Under the pieces are notes generated by a model. That model searched no databases, was not told the origin of the DNA, and saw nothing but the letters and a program-made list of their open reading frames with translations. Shown here in pieces: positions 20,169 through 53,234 of a DNA stretch of 64,000 nt. A program made the translations under genes and the position numbers. Source of the stretch: a virus; the IMG/VR virus record IMGVR_UViG_3300032753_000007, positions 45,753-109,752 of that record; one strand, written 5' to 3'. The stretch's first letter is position 1. Every line of letters begins with the position of its first letter.

Positions 20169-20174
20169 TATTCT

Positions 20175-20210
20175 AAATAATTACAAAGCTATATTATTGT
20201 TATGCAGTAC
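20175..20210 (+). promoter_or_regulatory. putative early (vRNAP) promoter
   Basis: AAATAATTACAAAGCTATATTATTGTTATGCAGTAC; near-identical copy at 22734; resembles the phiKZ early TATATTAC motif. Confidence 0.7.
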
Positions 20211-20244
20211 ACTTAATTTAAACTCAAAATAGAGGAATACAAAA

Positions 20245-22076: not shown

Positions 22077-22092
22077 ATATTTACCGTATTTC

Positions 22093-22178
22093 ATAAATTC
22101 AAATAATTTTCATATATATATAGTTAATATGAATAAAGACAATTCCGTCTTTTCAAACGCTGCGATGAGCAGCAAGGA
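22093..22178 (+). repeat. promoter plus two-hairpin leader element, copy 1
   Basis: ~85 bp homologous to 45962-46049: CATATATATATA..ATATGAATAAAGACAATTCCGTC..AACGCTGCrATGAGCAGCA. Confidence 0.85.
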
Positions 22179-22186
22179 AAAATATT

Positions 22187-22558
22187 ATGTTTGTTTTAAA
22201 ATCAGTACAACCGTTCTCTAATATAGATAACGGAAAAGTAAACTTGACAATAACAATAACGCTAAACGGAGGTGTGGTTACAGCAAAAAGAGTAGAGTGC
22301 AGATATCTGCACGGGGTGTCCACTAACAAGCTTGTAGTAGAGAAAGAAATCACCATTGTAGAAATGGAAGCTCTGCTTCAGTTCTACAACATTATGGACT
22401 ATCTAACTCATCTCACTGATGAGTTAGTAAGAATTGAAGAAATGCCTAATAACCACTTACATATAAGGGACTTAGAAGAGAAAATTAAGGAAATGGAAAA
22501 AACCAGTTCCTTACTAAGGAAGGCATTTCCAGATAGGATAAAAGACTTTATCTGGTAA
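22187..22558 (+). CDS. hypothetical early cassette protein
   Basis: 123 aa; SD AAGGA; has its own promoter/leader and terminator. Confidence 0.7.
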   Translation: MFVLKSVQPFSNIDNGKVNLTITITLNGGVVTAKRVECRYLHGVSTNKLVVEKEITIVEMEALLQFYNIMDYLTHLTDELVRIEEMPNNHLHIRDLEEKIKEMEKTSSLLRKAFPDRIKDFIW

Positions 22559-22610: not shown

Positions 22611-22733
22611 CTATTCATTTTTATATTGATATTATTACTATGCTAATTAAATATAGTTAGCTTTAACTTAATGCTTAATGAGAATTTAAAATGGAAAAAG
22701 CACCATTCATGCCACCTACTAAGTAAATTATGT

Positions 22734-22769
22734 AAATAATTACAAAGCTATATCATTACTATGCAGTAC
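22734..22769 (+). promoter_or_regulatory. putative early promoter
   Basis: AAATAATTACAAAGCTATATCATTACTATGCAGTAC; 33/36 identical to 20175-20210. Confidence 0.7.
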
Positions 22770-22801
22770 AATCAACTCAATTAATCTAAAGGAAAAATAA
22801 A

Positions 22802-33525: not shown

Positions 33526-35199
33526 ATGACACAAATTGTTTTTGAAATTGATATAAATAGAGGTTTTAGATGCTGGTATATTAGTCAAATCTATATGGGC
33601 CCTACTAATCCTGGATTAGGTAGAATTGTACCTAATGTTGATGATGTAGTGTTTGATTGGTCTGCTGGTATTTATAGAGTTATTTCTGTAGATGCGGTTA
33701 CTAACTTATCTGTATTAGTATTAATGTTTCCAATAGAAGCACTAGTACAAGGTGGCTTATCACCTAGTAATGACTTTTATAAATGGCAACCTAGTATACA
33801 AGAAGTCGCTTATTTAAATACCGCAGTTACACCGTATCAAATGGCATTAGACGCTAAGTACTTTATTGTAGGCATTGAAACGTCTTCAGTTGTTTTATTT
33901 AGAGGCACTGATACTTCATCAACAGGCACTGTAATTAGTGCAGTCTATGATTCATTGAATAATTACATTGGAAATACAGTTAAGGTATATCCCATTGATC
34001 CTACTAATTTAGCCATTACACGACCAAATGCCTTTAACTGCAGTACTGCATTAAACGATGGAGAAATCGTTACCTTAGTAGGCTATACTGCTTCTAATAC
34101 GCCGTCTATGGAACACCCTTTTTTAGTTAAGAACTCATCTGCAATACAGCCAATTAATAATGCAGTGAGTACATTAGTAGACGTTCAATTAGTCAGTAGG
34201 TTATTAGATAGTACCGTAAGTAATCAGATTAATGTACCGGCTAATATACCCATTCAGTCTAGTGATTATAGTGCTAATTTAATTTATGCAGATGGAACAA
34301 CTAAAGCTATTAGCATTGATAATGTTAAGTGTAAGTTACAAGGCACAGTAGCATTAAATACAGCCGTAGTAGGTGTATATGGTACATTAGTTTTAACATA
34401 TTACCCAGCTAATAATGAGCCCTATATTAATGGCAGTAACCCATCTATAGCATCATTATCACATATATACAATGTAAATGTAATGCCCAATACATTAAAT
34501 AGTGGGTTTAAAGTTTATGTAATTCCTAATTATAACGTTGATTATAATAGTTATCAGTTGTCGTTTTATTTAACCACATTAGATTATAGTACAGTGACAT
34601 TACTTAATCCATCACAATACACATTAAGTGAAATTGGTGGAAATCCTATTAACTATAGTTCAAGTGGTAGGATGCAATCATTAGAAATACAAGTGCCTAT
34701 TACATCGAGTATGGCTAATGGGTTTAGTGGCTATACATTTGTTCAAGCATTTGGTATACAGTTTAATAAACCTGCTCAAAATCCATGGATTATTGATTAC
34801 CTTAATACAAATAACAATATGTATGGTAGTGGGATATATTTTAATTTAGTAGCTCAAAACAATGCTTATGTCATTGATATGTCAATGGGGTTAACGTCAG
34901 TAACTACATGGTTAAGTAGTTTATTTGCTCCGTTATATCCTATTTATAATACTGCTTTGACAACAACAGCGCCTACACCTACACACATTTCATTAAGCTA
35001 TAATGGCTATACTACATCGCCTATATTACTCAGCAGTAATTGGAATGTAGTCGTAACAACAGCACTCTTTAATACGAGTACTGTATTTACATTTAATGAT
35101 TCAAGTAACGTTACTATTTCATGGCTAACCGCCACTGATCAAACTGATGTATTTTCAACAATTGCCTTATCTAGTGTAATACTATTAATGTCTAATTAG
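33526..35199 (+). CDS. virion structural/baseplate protein (phiKZ gp26-like)
   Basis: 557 aa; W...IYMG...GRIVPNVDD N-terminus; upstream of terminase. Confidence 0.65.
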   Translation: MTQIVFEIDINRGFRCWYISQIYMGPTNPGLGRIVPNVDDVVFDWSAGIYRVISVDAVTNLSVLVLMFPIEALVQGGLSPSNDFYKWQPSIQEVAYLNTAVTPYQMALDAKYFIVGIETSSVVLFRGTDTSSTGTVISAVYDSLNNYIGNTVKVYPIDPTNLAITRPNAFNCSTALNDGEIVTLVGYTASNTPSMEHPFLVKNSSAIQPINNAVSTLVDVQLVSRLLDSTVSNQINVPANIPIQSSDYSANLIYADGTTKAISIDNVKCKLQGTVALNTAVVGVYGTLVLTYYPANNEPYINGSNPSIASLSHIYNVNVMPNTLNSGFKVYVIPNYNVDYNSYQLSFYLTTLDYSTVTLLNPSQYTLSEIGGNPINYSSSGRMQSLEIQVPITSSMANGFSGYTFVQAFGIQFNKPAQNPWIIDYLNTNNNMYGSGIYFNLVAQNNAYVIDMSMGLTSVTTWLSSLFAPLYPIYNTALTTTAPTPTHISLSYNGYTTSPILLSSNWNVVVTTALFNTSTVFTFNDSSNVTISWLTATDQTDVFSTIALSSVILLMSN

Positions 35200-38665: not shown

Positions 38666-38702
38666 TAGTGTCCTACTACAGCATTGCTGTAGTAGGACAC
38701 TA
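38666..38702. terminator. bidirectional terminator hairpin
   Basis: 18-bp arms TAGTGTCCTACTACAGCA-t-TGCTGTAGTAGGACACTA. Confidence 0.75.
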
Positions 38703-42465: not shown

Positions 42466-42924
42466 ATGAATTTTATATTTGATATACGACAATTAGCATG
42501 TGAAACAGTAGGCATACTAAATATGTATACGCCTAACTTAGGTACGGACAAACCACAAATAGATGACATGGAATATCTAATATGGTGCATATTAAATTCA
42601 CAAATAGAAAGAAAGCTAAATAAGCTAGTCTTTAAAAAGACGAGTAGTGCTGTGCATTATCGCAATTACATTGAACGATATCGCCTATATCTAAATCCTA
42701 CTAAAAAAATAGTAGAATCAATGACTGGCTTTATAGCCTATAGCCAAATAATTGAAGAGTATATCAAACAAGATACATTTGAGTATTGGATCATTACTAA
42801 AGGAATGGGAGAAAATAAAGAAATCTATCAGCTAGAATCAGCAGGTGATTATCGAATATTAGAATGGGAAGCAGATCATCTTATTAATGGCATATATGTT
42901 TCAAGAAGACGCACCATTCCCTGA
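42466..42924 (+). CDS. conserved hypothetical protein
   Basis: 152 aa; SD GGAG; GDYRILEWE segment. Confidence 0.6.
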   Translation: MNFIFDIRQLACETVGILNMYTPNLGTDKPQIDDMEYLIWCILNSQIERKLNKLVFKKTSSAVHYRNYIERYRLYLNPTKKIVESMTGFIAYSQIIEEYIKQDTFEYWIITKGMGENKEIYQLESAGDYRILEWEADHLINGIYVSRRRTIP

Positions 42925-43318
42925 AGCAGTATCTTATATTTTTTCTGCTAATGCATTAAAAGAAATAGTCAATGAGATTATTGCGCCCTCTATTGGTAGC
43001 TTTAGTAGTATCATTGATTTAGAGCCATACTTAATGAATGAGTTATTTAAAGAATTACAAAAAGAAAACTATTATGAAATACCAAACATTGCACAGTATT
43101 TAAATGAATGGCCTATGCCTAGTGACATACGTGAATATATTCTTTATGAATTATCAGTTGTTTGTAAATCAATTGCCAATAACATTATTAATGATTTAAA
43201 AAATAAACTATTAGTCGATTTTATAATCATTAAAAACTACACTATCATAGCCAACGTTGTTTATTATTCAGAGAGAACATCATGCCAGAATCTATTACAA
43301 TATCCCAAATACAATTAA
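42887..43318 (+). CDS. hypothetical protein
   Basis: 143 aa; overlaps its neighbours within the operon. Confidence 0.55.
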   Translation: MAYMFQEDAPFPEAVSYIFSANALKEIVNEIIAPSIGSFSSIIDLEPYLMNELFKELQKENYYEIPNIAQYLNEWPMPSDIREYILYELSVVCKSIANNIINDLKNKLLVDFIIIKNYTIIANVVYYSERTSCQNLLQYPKYN

Positions 43319-43707
43319 ATGACATTATATCCTTTACTACTTATGGTGTAGGTGGCATCCTTCAAATTACTAATGGCACTGTCATTGGAATTGAAACAGG
43401 CACTAATTTAAGAAATCCTACTGCTGCTGCTGCTGAACACACTAATCTATTTGGTGCTATTCCACAAAGCACTAGTAACCCTATCCCAAATGATTATAGA
43501 AAATATAATTATTTATTAATTCAAAAAACTGATAATACGTTAGTAGAAGTAGGGTTTCCATGGATTAATCAAAGCACCTTAACACGTTTAGCCTATGGTA
43601 CTTTAACAGTGGTCATTGAAGATTTTACTACGAGTAATTTACCTATATTGACTGCGTTCTTATTAGCACAAGGTTGGACAAACAACACCATTACTTATAG
43701 CAATTAA
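43282..43707 (+). CDS. conserved hypothetical protein (phiKZ gp49-like, positional)
   Basis: 141 aa; PNDY..YNYL and GFPWIN segments; directly upstream of DNA polymerase. Confidence 0.55.
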   Translation: MPESITISQIQLNDIISFTTYGVGGILQITNGTVIGIETGTNLRNPTAAAAEHTNLFGAIPQSTSNPIPNDYRKYNYLLIQKTDNTLVEVGFPWINQSTLTRLAYGTLTVVIEDFTTSNLPILTAFLLAQGWTNNTITYSN

Positions 43708-43799: not shown

Positions 43800-45965
43800 A
43801 TGAGTGATGCTTTTGTTAAACCACCTGACCACTATCATAGAGACCTAGATATTAAAGGCAATGCTGAGCTAATAGCAGCTAAATATTTACAAGTCAAAAC
43901 AGGACAATCATTTGATGTTTGTTTAGATTTTGTTAAAAAAGAAACAAGTGATAATGGTTTATTTCCGTTAGCGCCTAAACATTTAAAAGTATTAAGAAAA
44001 GATCAAAATCAAGATAGAGTAAAAGACGTTTATAGCATTGATAAGATATTAGGTATAGCAACGCATGAGAAAGCAGCACTAACGGGTAATATGTGCGTGT
44101 ATAGCTCAAATGAAAATATACCATGTAGTACGGCTAATTATATAAATGATAAGTTAAATCTAAGAGCTTCTATTAAAGAGAAAGAAAAGATTGCTGAACA
44201 AGAAGGAAATAAACTATTAGCAATGACCTGTAACAATGGTCAAACTGCTGCAAAGCTATTAAATAACTCAGTATCAGGTGCTAGAGTATCACCTTATAAT
44301 CCCTTACATTTAAAAACAGCACATTCTTCATTAACCTCTACCACTATGTTGTCAGTTAGTTATAGTAACTCATCTACTGAAAGATTCTTATCTGGAAATA
44401 GGCATTATTATAATCTCTCAGTCACTATTGACGCTATCCTATCTGTTACATTAAATACAGATTATCGAGCCTTAGAAGCGACTGTCGTTAAGTATAGGCT
44501 ATATATACCTAATACGTCAGATGTATTTAAAAGCATTAAGCGCTGTAGTAAGTTCTATTGGAAAAATACACATTGGGATGATGAGTTAATAGATATTATT
44601 AACGGATTAACTGATTTAGAAAAATGTGCTTTTTTATATACAGGTGATTTTTTTAATCTCTCTAAACACAATCCAGACTTTGTAAGAGGTTTGTTATTTG
44701 AAGGTATACAGCCTGCTGATACAAATAGAGATATTGATTCAGATGCTATTGTAAAATCTGCTGATGCAGATATTATTGCATTATGTTCAGTATTATGTTC
44801 TGAGTTTTTAACAGGCACAATACCTGCTAAAATTAAAGCAACTAACCCAGAGCAATACAAGTACTTTGCTTGTACTATACTAGATGTTTGTAATTACATG
44901 AATAAATACAGTGATTTGTTTAGCACATTATTTGCTACTGTTAATATGCCATTAATGATTAGTGAGTTTCCTAATTCAATTAGACGCTCTGTAATGGGGT
45001 CTGATACAGATTCTAATATGTTTACTGTACAAGAATGGATAGTTTGGTTATTTGGTAAAGTTATTTTTTCTATTGAATCCACTAAAATAGCACAACTATT
45101 GTGTTACTTAGTATCTGAAGTAACCGCACATTCATTAATATCCTTATCACGCCAATTAGGCGTTAAAGATAAAGAATTATATCGATTAAAAATGAAAAGT
45201 GAATTTAGCTTTGCTATTTATGGTAGAGCAAATAAAGCTAAGCACTATGCTACATTAATGACCTCACGTGAAGGCAATGTATTCTCAACACCTAAGTTTG
45301 AAATTAAAGGTGTGGGATTAAAAGATTCTAAAATACCTAAATCTATTATAGGTCGCTTAGAAGAAGAATTTATTTATTTGTTTACTAAAATAACAAATAA
45401 CAAAGGTATTGATATTTACCTATTATTACAACGGATTGCTAACTTAGAACACTCAATTATGGAAGATTTAAATAAAGGCGATATTCAGTATTTATCAATG
45501 GTTAAAATAGCTAATAAAGAAGCTTATAAAAAACCAATGGCTAGTAAGTACATGCATTATGACTTATGGCAAAATGTTTATGAAAAAAAGTTTGGATCAG
45601 TAGGCGCGCCGCCTTATCAATGCGTTAAAATATCTACTACATTAATTAATAAAACCAGTATAGAAAAATGGATAGCTGCATCAGATAGTAGCTATAGAAA
45701 TGAATTAGAAGAGTGGTTAATTAGAAATAATAAGACATCATTAAAGATGTTATTAGTGCCATTAGAGTTGTTTAAAACAGGATTGCCTAAAGAGTTTTCT
45801 GACTTGATTGATAAACGTAAAATTATAAGTGAGTTAATTTCAGGCTATTATACATTATTAGAAATCATAGGGTTTTATGTACGTAATGAATCCACATCAA
45901 TTCTATTAATGGATGATATAGAATATAGACCAGAATATGGATTACCAGGTGATGAATTAAAATAA
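43800..45965 (+). CDS. family B DNA polymerase, polymerase subunit (phiKZ gp50-like)
   Basis: Q...K...NS.SGA (motif B), SDTDS (motif C), MKSEF, KHY and EIKGV motifs. Confidence 0.9.
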   Translation: MSDAFVKPPDHYHRDLDIKGNAELIAAKYLQVKTGQSFDVCLDFVKKETSDNGLFPLAPKHLKVLRKDQNQDRVKDVYSIDKILGIATHEKAALTGNMCVYSSNENIPCSTANYINDKLNLRASIKEKEKIAEQEGNKLLAMTCNNGQTAAKLLNNSVSGARVSPYNPLHLKTAHSSLTSTTMLSVSYSNSSTERFLSGNRHYYNLSVTIDAILSVTLNTDYRALEATVVKYRLYIPNTSDVFKSIKRCSKFYWKNTHWDDELIDIINGLTDLEKCAFLYTGDFFNLSKHNPDFVRGLLFEGIQPADTNRDIDSDAIVKSADADIIALCSVLCSEFLTGTIPAKIKATNPEQYKYFACTILDVCNYMNKYSDLFSTLFATVNMPLMISEFPNSIRRSVMGSDTDSNMFTVQEWIVWLFGKVIFSIESTKIAQLLCYLVSEVTAHSLISLSRQLGVKDKELYRLKMKSEFSFAIYGRANKAKHYATLMTSREGNVFSTPKFEIKGVGLKDSKIPKSIIGRLEEEFIYLFTKITNNKGIDIYLLLQRIANLEHSIMEDLNKGDIQYLSMVKIANKEAYKKPMASKYMHYDLWQNVYEKKFGSVGAPPYQCVKISTTLINKTSIEKWIAASDSSYRNELEEWLIRNNKTSLKMLLVPLELFKTGLPKEFSDLIDKRKIISELISGYYTLLEIIGFYVRNESTSILLMDDIEYRPEYGLPGDELK

Positions 45966-46049
45966 ATTCAAACTTTTTTTCATATATATATAATTTATAT
46001 GAATAAAGACAATTCCGTCCTTACATTAACGCTGCAATGAGCAGCAGGA
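45962..46049 (+). repeat. promoter plus two-hairpin leader element, copy 2
   Basis: Homologous to 22093-22178. Confidence 0.85.
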
Positions 46050-46057
46050 GCTTTACA

Positions 46058-46450
46058 ATGAGTTTAGTCGCCAAGAGCAACCACAACAAATTTAATAACA
46101 AATACGACGGTGACGTATTTCCACTGTTGACGGAAACAATATTTACTCAGCATGAGGCTGATATATCGGAACATAGCCTAGTAAAATTGAAAATCGAACT
46201 CATTTATGAGAACTTAAATAAAGGGGATATACAATATTTATCAATGGTTAAACTCCGTGAGGACCTTGTATACCAAACAAGGTACATAAGCGATCTTAAA
46301 GAAAAAATAGTAAAGGATCACGAGTTTTTACTTAAAACTCCGTGTAAGGGTACTTTAGAAACTAGCGTTGAGGCTGCATTAAATGCAGCATATGATGATC
46401 ATCTACAATGGCTAGCCGAATTTATAGCCGATATGTGTAGTTCTTCTTAA
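46058..46450 (+). CDS. hypothetical early cassette protein containing a 13-aa DNA-polymerase-identical segment
   Basis: Start moved from 46037 to ATG 46058 (SD AGGAG); LNKGDIQYLSMVK at 46214-46252. Confidence 0.7.
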   Translation: MSLVAKSNHNKFNNKYDGDVFPLLTETIFTQHEADISEHSLVKLKIELIYENLNKGDIQYLSMVKLREDLVYQTRYISDLKEKIVKDHEFLLKTPCKGTLETSVEAALNAAYDDHLQWLAEFIADMCSSS

Positions 46451-46458
46451 CCATTTAT

Positions 46459-46498
46459 TACCACTATAGAGTTTAAACTCTATAGTGGTATTTTTTTT
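46459..46498. terminator. bidirectional terminator (32-bp perfect palindrome plus T tract)
   Basis: TACCACTATAGAGTTTAAACTCTATAGTGGTA followed by T8; between convergent genes. Confidence 0.85.
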
Positions 46499-47555
46499 AT
46501 GCTTCACTTATTTTTTTTCTACTTTCTTCATAACGCTTAATAAAGGTTTCTCTTAATGCAGTAGGCATTCTTGTTAATGAATCAGTAGAATAAATAAATC
46601 TATCTACTCGTAATAATAAATTATGAATATTAGTAGTCGTTTGATTACCATTAGCTACAATAGCTGCTAAATAAAACCAATCAACATAAACTAATAACAA
46701 TAACCAATAACTGTACATACTCAATTCATTTATTTCATATGGTAATCTAGTCATTACATTATCACTAAACAATAAAGGTATTTGTTCTAATGTATTATAG
46801 TAGGGCAATCGCCTTGTTCTTAACTTAACTAATAGATGAGTTAATTCATGATCTATTGTTTCTTCAATACTTTTAATATTTTGTCTTTCTCGTTTAGTAG
46901 GATCAGGAATATCTTCACCTAATGCTAAGTGTATGATTCTATTTCTTAAAGCAATATCTATTTGTTCAGGCATCATACCAGGCAGCACATATTGCCCTAT
47001 AAACTCCGATAATGATTCATGTGTTAGCTCCGCATTGGTATCTTGTTCATGTAGCCATCCTCGCAATTGTCGTGCCAATTTAAATAGATCTATACCAATA
47101 GCTGAAAATCTATTATCTATAATATCATTACCGAGTGGAGGCAAGAATATTTCCATTGTGGTAAAGGGATGATTTAAACATCTAACAGGTCTTTCATTAC
47201 GCCAATCTAATTGCTTATCTGTAAATGTAGTAGATAAGACAGCACAGTTAGTCGTATAGAAGAGTTTTGTATAAATCATACCCTTTGTAAAGCTAGAGGT
47301 AATTCGTGCTGCAGAACAGATTTTTGTATGGTTATCTTCAATTAAACGATGTAGGTCTGTCTTAATAGTAACATAATCCATTAAGGTGTATAATACTTTA
47401 ATAAGTAAGTGATTTGAATTTATATACTTTGGATGTGTGGTTAAGAAGTATAAGTAATAATCATAATAGCCTTTATATACATTTCTTAATCGTAGTATAT
47501 TAGGTACATCAATCTCACCTCTATTACTAAGGTGATGTGTAAACAATCTAAACAT
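46497..47555 (-). CDS. virion structural protein (phiKZ gp52-like, positional)
   Basis: 352 aa; minus-strand gene between DNA polymerase and chmA; NHLLIK and YVLP segments. Confidence 0.55.
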   Translation of the reverse strand: MFRLFTHHLSNRGEIDVPNILRLRNVYKGYYDYYLYFLTTHPKYINSNHLLIKVLYTLMDYVTIKTDLHRLIEDNHTKICSAARITSSFTKGMIYTKLFYTTNCAVLSTTFTDKQLDWRNERPVRCLNHPFTTMEIFLPPLGNDIIDNRFSAIGIDLFKLARQLRGWLHEQDTNAELTHESLSEFIGQYVLPGMMPEQIDIALRNRIIHLALGEDIPDPTKRERQNIKSIEETIDHELTHLLVKLRTRRLPYYNTLEQIPLLFSDNVMTRLPYEINELSMYSYWLLLLVYVDWFYLAAIVANGNQTTTNIHNLLLRVDRFIYSTDSLTRMPTALRETFIKRYEESRKKISEA

Positions 47556-47848: not shown

Positions 47849-48163
47849 ATGTTAAAACGCATAGTGCTTTACTTTCTATTACTAGTGGTATCACTTAATC
47901 TATTTGCTGCTACTTTAGCTGAATGTGATGTAATGTTAAAGCACTATGCTAAAGTCAGAAACAATAGTAATCCAAGTATTAGGAGTAAAGCCAATCTAAT
48001 ACATGATAAAATATTTAAAGAATGCATCATACCACAAGGATATGATACGGATACATTGATGTATCATTTAACTCACGATAAACCACTAGAAATAACACCT
48101 ACCAAACCTAAAGGAAAACATAATGAAAAAACCAAAAAGATACCCAATGCTAGACGACGATAA
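47849..48163 (+). CDS. small exported protein
   Basis: Signal peptide MLKRIVLYFLLLVVSLNLFA; two Cys; basic tail. Confidence 0.55.
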   Translation: MLKRIVLYFLLLVVSLNLFAATLAECDVMLKHYAKVRNNSNPSIRSKANLIHDKIFKECIIPQGYDTDTLMYHLTHDKPLEITPTKPKGKHNEKTKKIPNARRR

Positions 48164-48566
48164 TAACAGTGATGCTGCTGTTATAATGGCTATGCCAGAC
48201 ACACCACTACCAGAAGACGATGACACAGTACCATTTCTTATTAAAGGCGATGAGCCTACTGAAGAAGTTAAACCACAGATAACAATGGATGTATTACCAC
48301 CAGAAGTACAAGCATTCATAAAAGAACAAATAATAGCAGCAGTAGCACAAAGTACTGCTGCTATGTTAAGTGCTCAACCAATACTTAGTGATATTAAGGA
48401 TCAGTTAGATCATATTAATGAAGCTAGTAAAGTTGTCATAGAATCAAATAAAGTAGAAGAAATAACTACTAAAGAGGAAGATCCATATGCTGAGTTATGC
48501 TCACTAGATAGATTTATTATGGAATCAACAGAACATATTAGATTAGAACAACGTAATCATTGGTAA
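48123..48566 (+). CDS. acidic hypothetical protein
   Basis: 147 aa; SD AAGGA. Confidence 0.6.
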   Translation: MKKPKRYPMLDDDNNSDAAVIMAMPDTPLPEDDDTVPFLIKGDEPTEEVKPQITMDVLPPEVQAFIKEQIIAAVAQSTAAMLSAQPILSDIKDQLDHINEASKVVIESNKVEEITTKEEDPYAELCSLDRFIMESTEHIRLEQRNHW

Positions 48567-49126: not shown

Positions 49127-49747
49127 ATGAATGAAATGAGATGTATTCCTGTTAAAGATATGGAAAGGATTGTATCGGGCAAATATAAAGGGAATTTAGG
49201 GTATAGTAATAGAGTGAGTAGTATTACGTTAGAAAAGCATATCGACTATGATGGTAGAGTAGAGGTGAGTACATTTAAGGTGGATGTTAATGCTAAAGAT
49301 ACTACGAGTGATGCTAGGTATGAGATAACGAGTGATGGTGAAACACATTTAGAAATAGTATCTAAAGTGAATTTAGTGGTGCCTTATGCAATCTATGAGG
49401 GTAAAAAAGGCTGTAATAAGGTGGTGTTAGAAACAATGGGTAAAGCAACGGCTATAATAACACACGATGTTATTATAGCGAAACAAGATAAGGTAGTGGG
49501 TGATGGGGTTCGTAAGGTCTATAAAAAAGGTGAAAATGAGGTATTAATAAATACCTATATACATCCTGGTATGCCTGTTATATTTCATCATGATAATCCT
49601 TTTTTAGAGGTAGTAAAGAGTACGTTTTATAGTGACTTAGTTAAAAGGTATGTAAATATAGAGCCTATTGGTGTGAGTTATACCATGGGGTTAGATTACT
49701 TTATAAATAAGCTTAGAGAGTACATTGATAGGGAGAATAATAAATGA
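49127..49747 (+). CDS. hypothetical protein
   Basis: 206 aa; SD GGAG. Confidence 0.65.
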   Translation: MNEMRCIPVKDMERIVSGKYKGNLGYSNRVSSITLEKHIDYDGRVEVSTFKVDVNAKDTTSDARYEITSDGETHLEIVSKVNLVVPYAIYEGKKGCNKVVLETMGKATAIITHDVIIAKQDKVVGDGVRKVYKKGENEVLINTYIHPGMPVIFHHDNPFLEVVKSTFYSDLVKRYVNIEPIGVSYTMGLDYFINKLREYIDRENNK

Positions 49748-49774: not shown

Positions 49775-50338
49775 ATGAGAGTAAAATCAATTACACTAGA
49801 AGGTGAAATTACACCTAATAGCAAAGGCAGTACTCATGTAGCTATTAGTTTTAATAATGATAGCTTAATCTATAAAGTACTGTATAACGCCTTATACAAA
49901 ATAAATGAGGATTTAATTGTAATAATTATAACTAATCCTGAATTACAACAATTTGGAATTATTTATTCACTATCAACTAAAAAAATCAAAGATTATAGTC
50001 CATTAACAGCAATTGCTGCAAGTGCTTTAGGCAACTACAATAAAGCATTAAACGAGTATTTGGATAACCTATGGGGTAATTGCGTAGATGAAAAACTAAT
50101 TAGACGTTGTTACTTTAATATTAGAATATGTGAGCGTGATTTATTTAAACTAGAATTAAGTAAATTTTTAGTTGAAAATGATTACTTAATAAATAGCATA
50201 ATGAATATTGTAAATGTAGTGCCAGTAAAAGAGATGGATTGGTGGTTTAGAGATGACATAGTAGTGGATAAAGATGTAGTAGATGATGTAAAAGCATTAA
50301 ACGAGTATTTGGATAACAAAGAGCAAGAGGATAACTAA
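49775..50338 (+). CDS. hypothetical protein with internal 9-aa duplication
   Basis: 187 aa; KALNEYLDN occurs twice. Confidence 0.6.
   Translation: MRVKSITLEGEITPNSKGSTHVAISFNNDSLIYKVLYNALYKINEDLIVIIITNPELQQFGIIYSLSTKKIKDYSPLTAIAASALGNYNKALNEYLDNLWGNCVDEKLIRRCYFNIRICERDLFKLELSKFLVENDYLINSIMNIVNVVPVKEMDWWFRDDIVVDKDVVDDVKALNEYLDNKEQEDN
50042..50317 (+). repeat. 27-bp exact direct repeat (50042-50068 and 50291-50317)
   Basis: AAAGCATTAAACGAGTATTTGGATAAC twice, 249 bp apart and in frame. Confidence 0.9.
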
Positions 50339-53189: not shown

Positions 53190-53234
53190 TAATAGAGGCA
53201 GGATATATCCTGCCTCTATTATTTATCTTTTTTT
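53190..53234 (+). terminator. intrinsic terminator (32-bp perfect palindrome)
   Basis: TAATAGAGGCAGGATATATCCTGCCTCTATTA followed by a T-rich tract. Confidence 0.85.

Follow-up and report, generated by a model that had tools for sequence, protein, structure and literature searches.

Schultz and Drake reportedly described, in 2008, templated short-patch mutation and template switching involving imperfect repeats in phage T4. In yeast, templated short-patch mutation is described as a source of protein change (PMC8604942), and UvsX of T4 pairs minihomologies of 3 to 7 nucleotides (nt) to prime repair (PMC8262927). In T4-type phages, orphan genes are shuffled as promoter/stem-loop (PeSL) cassettes (PMC2839356, PMC4122927). 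Here, we analyze a window of 64,000 nt, the final 64 kb of a 109,752-nt IMG/VR viral contig (record IMGVR_UViG_3300032753_000007, estimated to be 41% complete), in which a 39-nt segment of a DNA polymerase gene reappears within the small orphan gene that follows it. The match is probably a short templated patch copied between two nonhomologous neighbors, the scar of sloppy repair or copying. Positions are those of the window unless another frame is named.

Several features of this locus recall the described systems. As in templated short-patch mutation, clustered changes with sharp borders could stem from a single copying of a nearby donor in cis; unlike in that process, no repeat or homology is visible here, the tract is long at 39 nt, and it carries a peptide of 13 residues from one protein into another, unrelated one. 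Gene conversion between paralogous loci likewise leaves a short, near-identical tract in two neighboring genes through one-way copying, but here the flanks are nonhomologous. Priming on 3 to 7 nt of identity, as in T4 minihomology recombination, would permit ectopic template copying after a break, although that paper describes deletions rather than templated insertions (PMC8262927). Finally, as in the PeSL cassettes, a single orphan is flanked by a conserved early-type promoter on one side and a stem-loop terminator on the other, in an arrangement that is repeated in the genome (four leaders) and variable between close relatives. The differences are that this phage belongs to another family (chimallivirus-like), that the motifs are other ones, and that PeSL shuffling moves whole cassettes and not 39-nt pieces.

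A DNA polymerase gene and the adjacent orphan gene share a near-identical 39-nt tract

The two tracts lie on the same strand and are identical at 36 of 39 nt (Table 1). Their three differences, GGC/GGG, ATT/ATA, and CAG/CAA, all fall at third codon positions and are all synonymous, and both tracts encode LNKGDIQYLSMVK in the frame of their own gene, at residues 557 to 569 of the polymerase and residues 53 to 65 of the orphan (counted from the ATG at 46058). A first-pass annotation of this DNA had reported this pattern, and direct comparison confirms it. The same annotation described the flanks as weakly similar, a description we do not uphold: in-register identity outside the block is at chance level, with 6 of 12 nt matching on the left and 1 of 3 in the codon on the right, and the borders are therefore sharp. 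At most 18 nt in a row are identical within the match. In a k-mer scan of the entire record, no other long repeat linked two different genes; the remaining repeats were copies of promoters or leaders, terminator palindromes, and one repeat internal to a gene. No third copy of the 39-mer is present in the 110-kb record.

The source is a metagenome-derived contig, which might favor an assembly artifact, but this explanation is scarcely credible, as is chance or convergent similarity. Among assembled Logan contigs, independent contigs of four runs from four studies covered both copies with zero differences, and one contig of 7,122 nt bridged the two; two of the four runs stem from samples that carry no flag as a possible source of this DNA. 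At the level of contigs, the chimera that the first-pass annotation had listed as a possible undoing of its observation is thus excluded. A misjoin induced by the repeat is not credible because the exact run of 18 nt does not reach the 31-letter word length of the Logan index. We estimate the chance expectation of a 36/39 match in 110 kb of DNA with 30% G+C at ~2e-6, and convergence cannot yield identity at 36 of 39 nt. Another run (X5) has no contig across 46093 to 46421 while the flanks are covered, which is a gap in coverage only.

Outside the record, blastn and tblastn comparisons of the region and of the orphan with 50,697 phage records gave no match, and a back-translated pattern of the 13-mer retrieved nothing from viral contigs or from metagenome contigs of the Joint Genome Institute (JGI). 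No foreign donor allele was found in the collections searched, which are incomplete and from which the window's own records had been left out. A diversity-generating retroelement was considered and rejected, as the differences (C/G, T/A, and G/A) are not adenine specific in either direction; no search for a reverse transcriptase was made.

The shared segment fits the polymerase family

Membership of the polymerase in its family is clear. Residues 8 to 705 match Pfam family PF20286 with an E value of 3.9e-193 and a score of 643.9 bits, against a gathering cutoff of 25.7, and the protein also matches PHROG 2927, "DNA polymerase." It shares 31 to 34% identity with its counterparts in Phabio, 201phi2-1, and many further jumbo phages, and its residues D402, T403, D404, and S405 (DTDS, motif C) and K481 and Y483 (KxY) are invariant in 30 sequences, as befits a member of the family. 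An AlphaFold2 model of the protein has a predicted local distance difference test score (pLDDT) of 89.5 and shows a weak fold match to gp43 of RB69 and T4.

The 13 residues lie within the conserved motif SLxxGEIxYLSxxNI. In an alignment of 30 polymerases, whose members are 31 to 48% identical to this polymerase over the whole protein, G560 is invariant and L565 nearly so. Because the segment belongs to a conserved family motif, it is native to the polymerase. In the general architecture of family B polymerases, the region downstream of KxY is the thumb, and the segment, which lies past KxY, would be part of it. On the polymerase model, onto which the first-pass annotation had proposed to map the peptide, the segment forms the end of helix 539-558, the following loop, and the start of strand 566-570; the family-conserved G560, Y564, L565, and S566 look there like structural residues of a helix cap, loop, and strand and not like an obvious epitope.

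A sister phage carries the orphan gene without the segment

The closest comparison available is a sister phage, represented by a 200,407-nt Logan/ENA contig and compared with our record at the protein level; its proteins include P0004 (the counterpart of the orphan), P0039 (the polymerase), and P0038. P0039 is identical to our polymerase at 704 of 721 residues and contains the same 13 residues. P0004 (126 residues) is the sole homologue of the orphan (E=1.8e-43), with an identical C terminus of 15 residues, and at the position of the segment it carries unrelated residues in the protein alignment. Only 2 of 27 residues are shared between the two orphans within residues 39 to 65, versus ~80% elsewhere. 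In an alternative alignment shifted by one residue, the stretch upstream of L53 is homologous between the orphans, and ~11 residues have been swapped for 12. The first-pass annotation had named homologues lacking the patch as evidence that would speak against its proposal, and the single homologue is of just this kind.

We number the orphan from 46058, its most likely start (130 residues), from which the protein (P0003) is also called in the protein collection. The ATG at 46037, taken as the start in the program-made ORF list, is unlikely to be used because it lies inside the loop of a leader hairpin with AGGAG following, as in the other copies of the cassette described below. When 1.84 billion cluster representatives are searched at E<=1e-10, the orphan family comprises only two proteins, and related-locus searches with the orphan or its alignment in incomplete collections gave no further homologue. 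The orphan belongs to no Pfam family, and PHROG gives only a weak match of unknown function; with no nuclease domain either, a free-standing homing endonuclease gene was discarded as a candidate identity.

Composition also sets the segment apart from its surroundings. Its G+C content of 0.205 is the lowest of all 39-nt windows of the orphan, compared with 0.37 for the rest of the orphan and 0.30 for the polymerase, and at third codon positions G+C amounts to 0.37 in the orphan outside the segment versus 0.20 in the polymerase. In an AlphaFold2 model of the orphan (pLDDT of 77 to 85 over residues 30 to 90 and 63 overall), helices 33-54 and 60-87 form a hairpin, and the segment is predicted to occupy its tip. 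The two proteins show no sign of common descent. P0004, which is free of the segment, has no homology to the polymerase family (hhalign probability, 0.07%), and by BLASTP the similarity between orphan and polymerase is limited to the patch. The hhalign result rules out the orphan as a decayed polymerase fragment. Together with flanks at chance level and the restricted BLASTP similarity, it also removes the homology that gene conversion between paralogues presupposes; ordinary conversion of this kind does not apply because donor and recipient are not homologous. From these comparisons, the patch reads as an isolated graft in an otherwise unrelated protein, and the idea in the first-pass annotation of a captured polymerase fragment within an unrelated remainder holds. 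The fit to the family motif, the polymerase-like low G+C of the graft, and its absence from the sister orphan identify the polymerase as the donor.

The orphan gene sits in a self-contained cassette

The orphan is the outlier of its neighborhood. It is 59 to 62% identical to its sister-phage counterpart, versus 87 to 100% for the flanking genes. The cassette gene either evolves much faster than its neighbors or has been exchanged with a more distant relative, and the identities make a separate history for the cassette plausible. The first-pass annotation had offered, as an alternative, a recombination scar from another phage's polymerase allele, and in spirit this discordance agrees with it.

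The cassette begins at the polymerase stop codon and contains, in order, a promoter-like block, a hairpin, AGGAG, an open reading frame (ORF) of 130 codons, and a terminator. The promoter-like sequence TTCAAA-16-TATAAT (10/12) lies at 45967 to 45994, the hairpin GCTGC-AATGA-GCAGC at 46031 to 46045, and the Shine-Dalgarno sequence AGGAG at 46046 to 46050. Four copies of the leader are present, at 33880, 37866, 67845, and 91729 of the whole record, two of which lie in the window (22079 to 22186 and 45962 to 46057). They have ATAAATTCAAA ... ATGAATAAAGA in common; next comes a small RATGA-loop hairpin directly adjoining the Shine-Dalgarno sequence, and each copy drives a single small orphan gene, at whose end lie a long perfect palindrome and a T run. 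A 5' promoter and a 3' stem-loop thus surround a single orphan in an arrangement repeated in the genome, which is a PeSL-like architecture.

Identity at the nucleotide level raises the question of whether the 39 bases are instead a DNA or RNA site, for a regulator, a small RNA, or a nuclease, that is needed in both transcripts. The cassette mRNA as a whole is unusually structured: positions 46020 to 46500 are predicted to fold far more stably than shuffled versions (z=-4.4, with no equally good fold among 100 shuffles). The center of this stretch, where the graft lies, is, however, not structured beyond shuffles (z=-0.72), the pairing probability of the patch equals the average of the ORF, and the three bases of the polymerase version would make the orphan mRNA fold more stably. 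These values rule out an RNA-structure rationale for the three differences. In addition, a third copy is lacking in the record, the sister orphan is without the 39-mer, and the differences avoid amino acid changes, which pure constraint on a nucleic acid does not predict. A shared nucleic acid element is therefore highly improbable.

Table 1. Features of the locus and its surroundings, in window coordinates, with protein identities from a gene-by-gene comparison with the sister phage
Feature	Position	Strand	Identity to sister phage	Description
PhuZ-type phage tubulin	41413-42414		97.0%	Just upstream of polymerase; TubZ_C_2 and tubulin GTPase domain
ORF	42466-42924		98.7%	
ORF	42887-43318		98.6%	
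SH3DP	43282-43707		100% (protein sequence)	"SH3 fold domain associated with phage DNA polymerases"; just upstream of polymerase
DNA polymerase gene	43800-45965	+	97.6%	721 residues; divergent family B, phiKZ type; Pfam PF20286, PHROG 2927; donor gene
Donor segment	45468-45506	+		Polymerase residues 557-569 (LNKGDIQYLSMVK); matches family consensus
Cassette leader	45962-46057	+		Promoter-like block, hairpin, and Shine-Dalgarno sequence; common to four genome loci
Orphan gene	46058-46450	+	59% (62% by BLASTP)	130 residues (P0003); predicted helical, with central helical hairpin; recipient
Divergent center of orphan	46172-46252	+		Residues 39-65, from P0003/P0004 alignment
Graft	46214-46252	+		Orphan residues 53-65; G+C 0.205; predicted end of helix 1, turn, start of helix 2
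Cassette terminator	46459-46490	+		32-nt perfect palindrome, then T run
ORF	47849-48163		90.4%	
ORF	49127-49747		87.5%	
ORF	49775-50338	+	90.9%	Contains 27-nt direct repeat

A short templated copy is the probable origin of the shared segment

A short templated copying event would explain these observations as follows. Some 36 to 39 bases of the polymerase gene would have served as an ectopic template and been written into the orphan 746 bases downstream on the same strand, in place of ~11 to 13 codons that encode the tip of its helical hairpin. Either this phage's own polymerase gene or a near-identical allele in a sister strain where the cassette then resided would be the donor. As to the route, the patch would probably stem from a template switch during replication or from break repair that microhomology of a few bases had primed, as phage recombinases are able to do: a 3' end in the orphan, either nascent or broken, would pair with a few bases of the polymerase gene, copy ~39 nt, and return. 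The patch may have persisted because it fell where this fast-evolving cassette gene changes most easily and is under the least constraint. Two expectations of a template switch are borne out, namely, a near-identical donor with sharp borders in the same genome (36/39 nt, 746 nt upstream, same strand) and absence of the tract from the orthologous site of a relative (P0004 lacks it, whereas P0039 has it). That the copy is in frame calls for no selection on its meaning; with stop codons in both off-frames, the graft could survive only in frame.

The three synonymous differences are best explained by purifying selection on the polymerase copy or on a polymerase allele, and not as proof of selection on the graft. 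If the graft was templated by the allele of a sister strain, then the differences represent divergence between polymerase alleles and are uninformative about the orphan; three changes in 39 nt plausibly suit alleles whose proteins are a few percent apart. A separate history of the cassette, plausible from these identities (59 to 62% versus 87 to 100%), would make the three differences explicable.

Several observations weigh against a templated patch or limit what can be claimed for it. No junction microhomology or imperfect repeats are visible in the present flanks, which do not represent the ancestral recipient sequence. No donor for the other 14 residues of the divergent center was found in the 110-kb record. 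(A 7-residue match, VYQTRYI, at position 42759 was rejected as a donor, being out of frame with the local ORF and at chance level, with an E value of ~2 to 7.) As there is a single homologue and no outgroup, the sister phage could also, with lower probability, have lost the patch. The probability that three random changes are all synonymous is ~0.005, or by our estimate ~0.03 if only the polymerase copy was constrained and the event was intragenomic, and the synonymous-only pattern thus leaves some room for selection on the graft.

That last point bears on functional capture, the proposal that the graft was selected as a copy of a polymerase thumb loop and acts as a decoy for a host sensor, a competitor for a partner, or a patch for import into the phage nucleus. 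The pattern of differences (3 of 3 synonymous; P of ~0.005 if random) is compatible with such a role, as are the exposed-looking position of the graft at the hairpin tip in the orphan model, the location of the orphan in an early-type cassette, and the type of phage, which is a nucleus-forming one with PhuZ and SH3DP genes nearby. Moreover, as of 2024 no import signal for nucleus-forming phages was known (bioRxiv 10.1101/2024.03.27.586873). We nevertheless regard functional capture as unlikely. The sole homologue lacks the patch although its phage has the same polymerase peptide, in-frame copying was forced by the off-frame stops, and synonymous-only differences are expected from changes in the polymerase copy or in a sister allele. 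In the models, furthermore, the segment after the turn is predicted to be a strand in the polymerase and a helix in the orphan, and shape mimicry need not be invoked. For the first two of these reasons, the statement in the first-pass annotation that the fragment is kept at the protein level does not serve as evidence of function. A mimicry or decoy role is unsupported, as is the idea of an import tag. A functional transplant, by which a surface loop of the polymerase would lend the cassette protein recognition by the import machinery, a partner, or a host sensor, is very unlikely.

Other repeats in the record and the phage that carries them

A further candidate for short templated copying lies 4 kb away. 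An exact direct repeat of 27 nt (27/27) occurs at 50042 to 50068 and 50291 to 50317, 249 nt apart, within the plus-strand ORF at 49775 to 50338. It is in frame both times and encodes KALNEYLDN at residues 90 to 98 and 173 to 181, with unrelated flanks and stop codons in both off-frames, and both copies are also found in P0038 of the sister phage, whose protein is 91% identical. It could represent another short templated patch or else a short linear motif present twice. The record holds 7 direct repeats of at least 16 nt within 3 kb, versus ~0.6 in Markov-shuffled genomes; some of these are promoter motifs. Together, these repeats suggest that this lineage has undergone short templated copying between neighboring sites more than once.

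Two other classes of repeat were noted. An intergenic direct repeat of 38 nt (35/38 identical) at 20174 to 20211 and 22733 to 22770 lies upstream of two plus-strand genes and probably constitutes another class of promoter or regulatory motif. The record also contains more than 20 long perfect or near-perfect palindromes of 24 to 43 nt (e.g., at 38666 to 38702, 53190 to 53221, and 46459 to 46490), a striking density for 110 kb, and these are most probably terminators for the most part.

By its gene content, the phage is classed as a chimallivirus-like, nucleus-forming jumbo phage, giant and uncultured, from lake water. This assignment follows from the phiKZ-type polymerase and the PhuZ-type tubulin and SH3DP genes upstream of it, and the runs that contain the phage are labeled as lake-water or freshwater metagenomes. 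Identities to the sister phage are listed in Table 1; the cassette ORF at 22187 to 22558 and the ORF at 48123 to 48566 have no sister-phage partner at >=90% identity. The lack of such partners for cassette genes, where their flanks do have them, is indirect support for possible movement of the cassettes.

Implications

As matters stand, the graft is a mutational scar of modest interest. It would matter more should functional transplantation prove true after all. Nucleus-forming phages would then offer a natural example of a recognition element that is both short and transferable, and on such a minority reading the peptide, which occurs both in an enzyme of nuclear replication and in a protein of an early cassette, would be a candidate for that element open to testing. 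Read as a short templated copy, the locus would provide a clean, datable natural case in which a 13-residue peptide moved between unrelated genes. Together with the second putative patch nearby, it hints that such events may help to remodel the fast-evolving orphan genes of giant phages.

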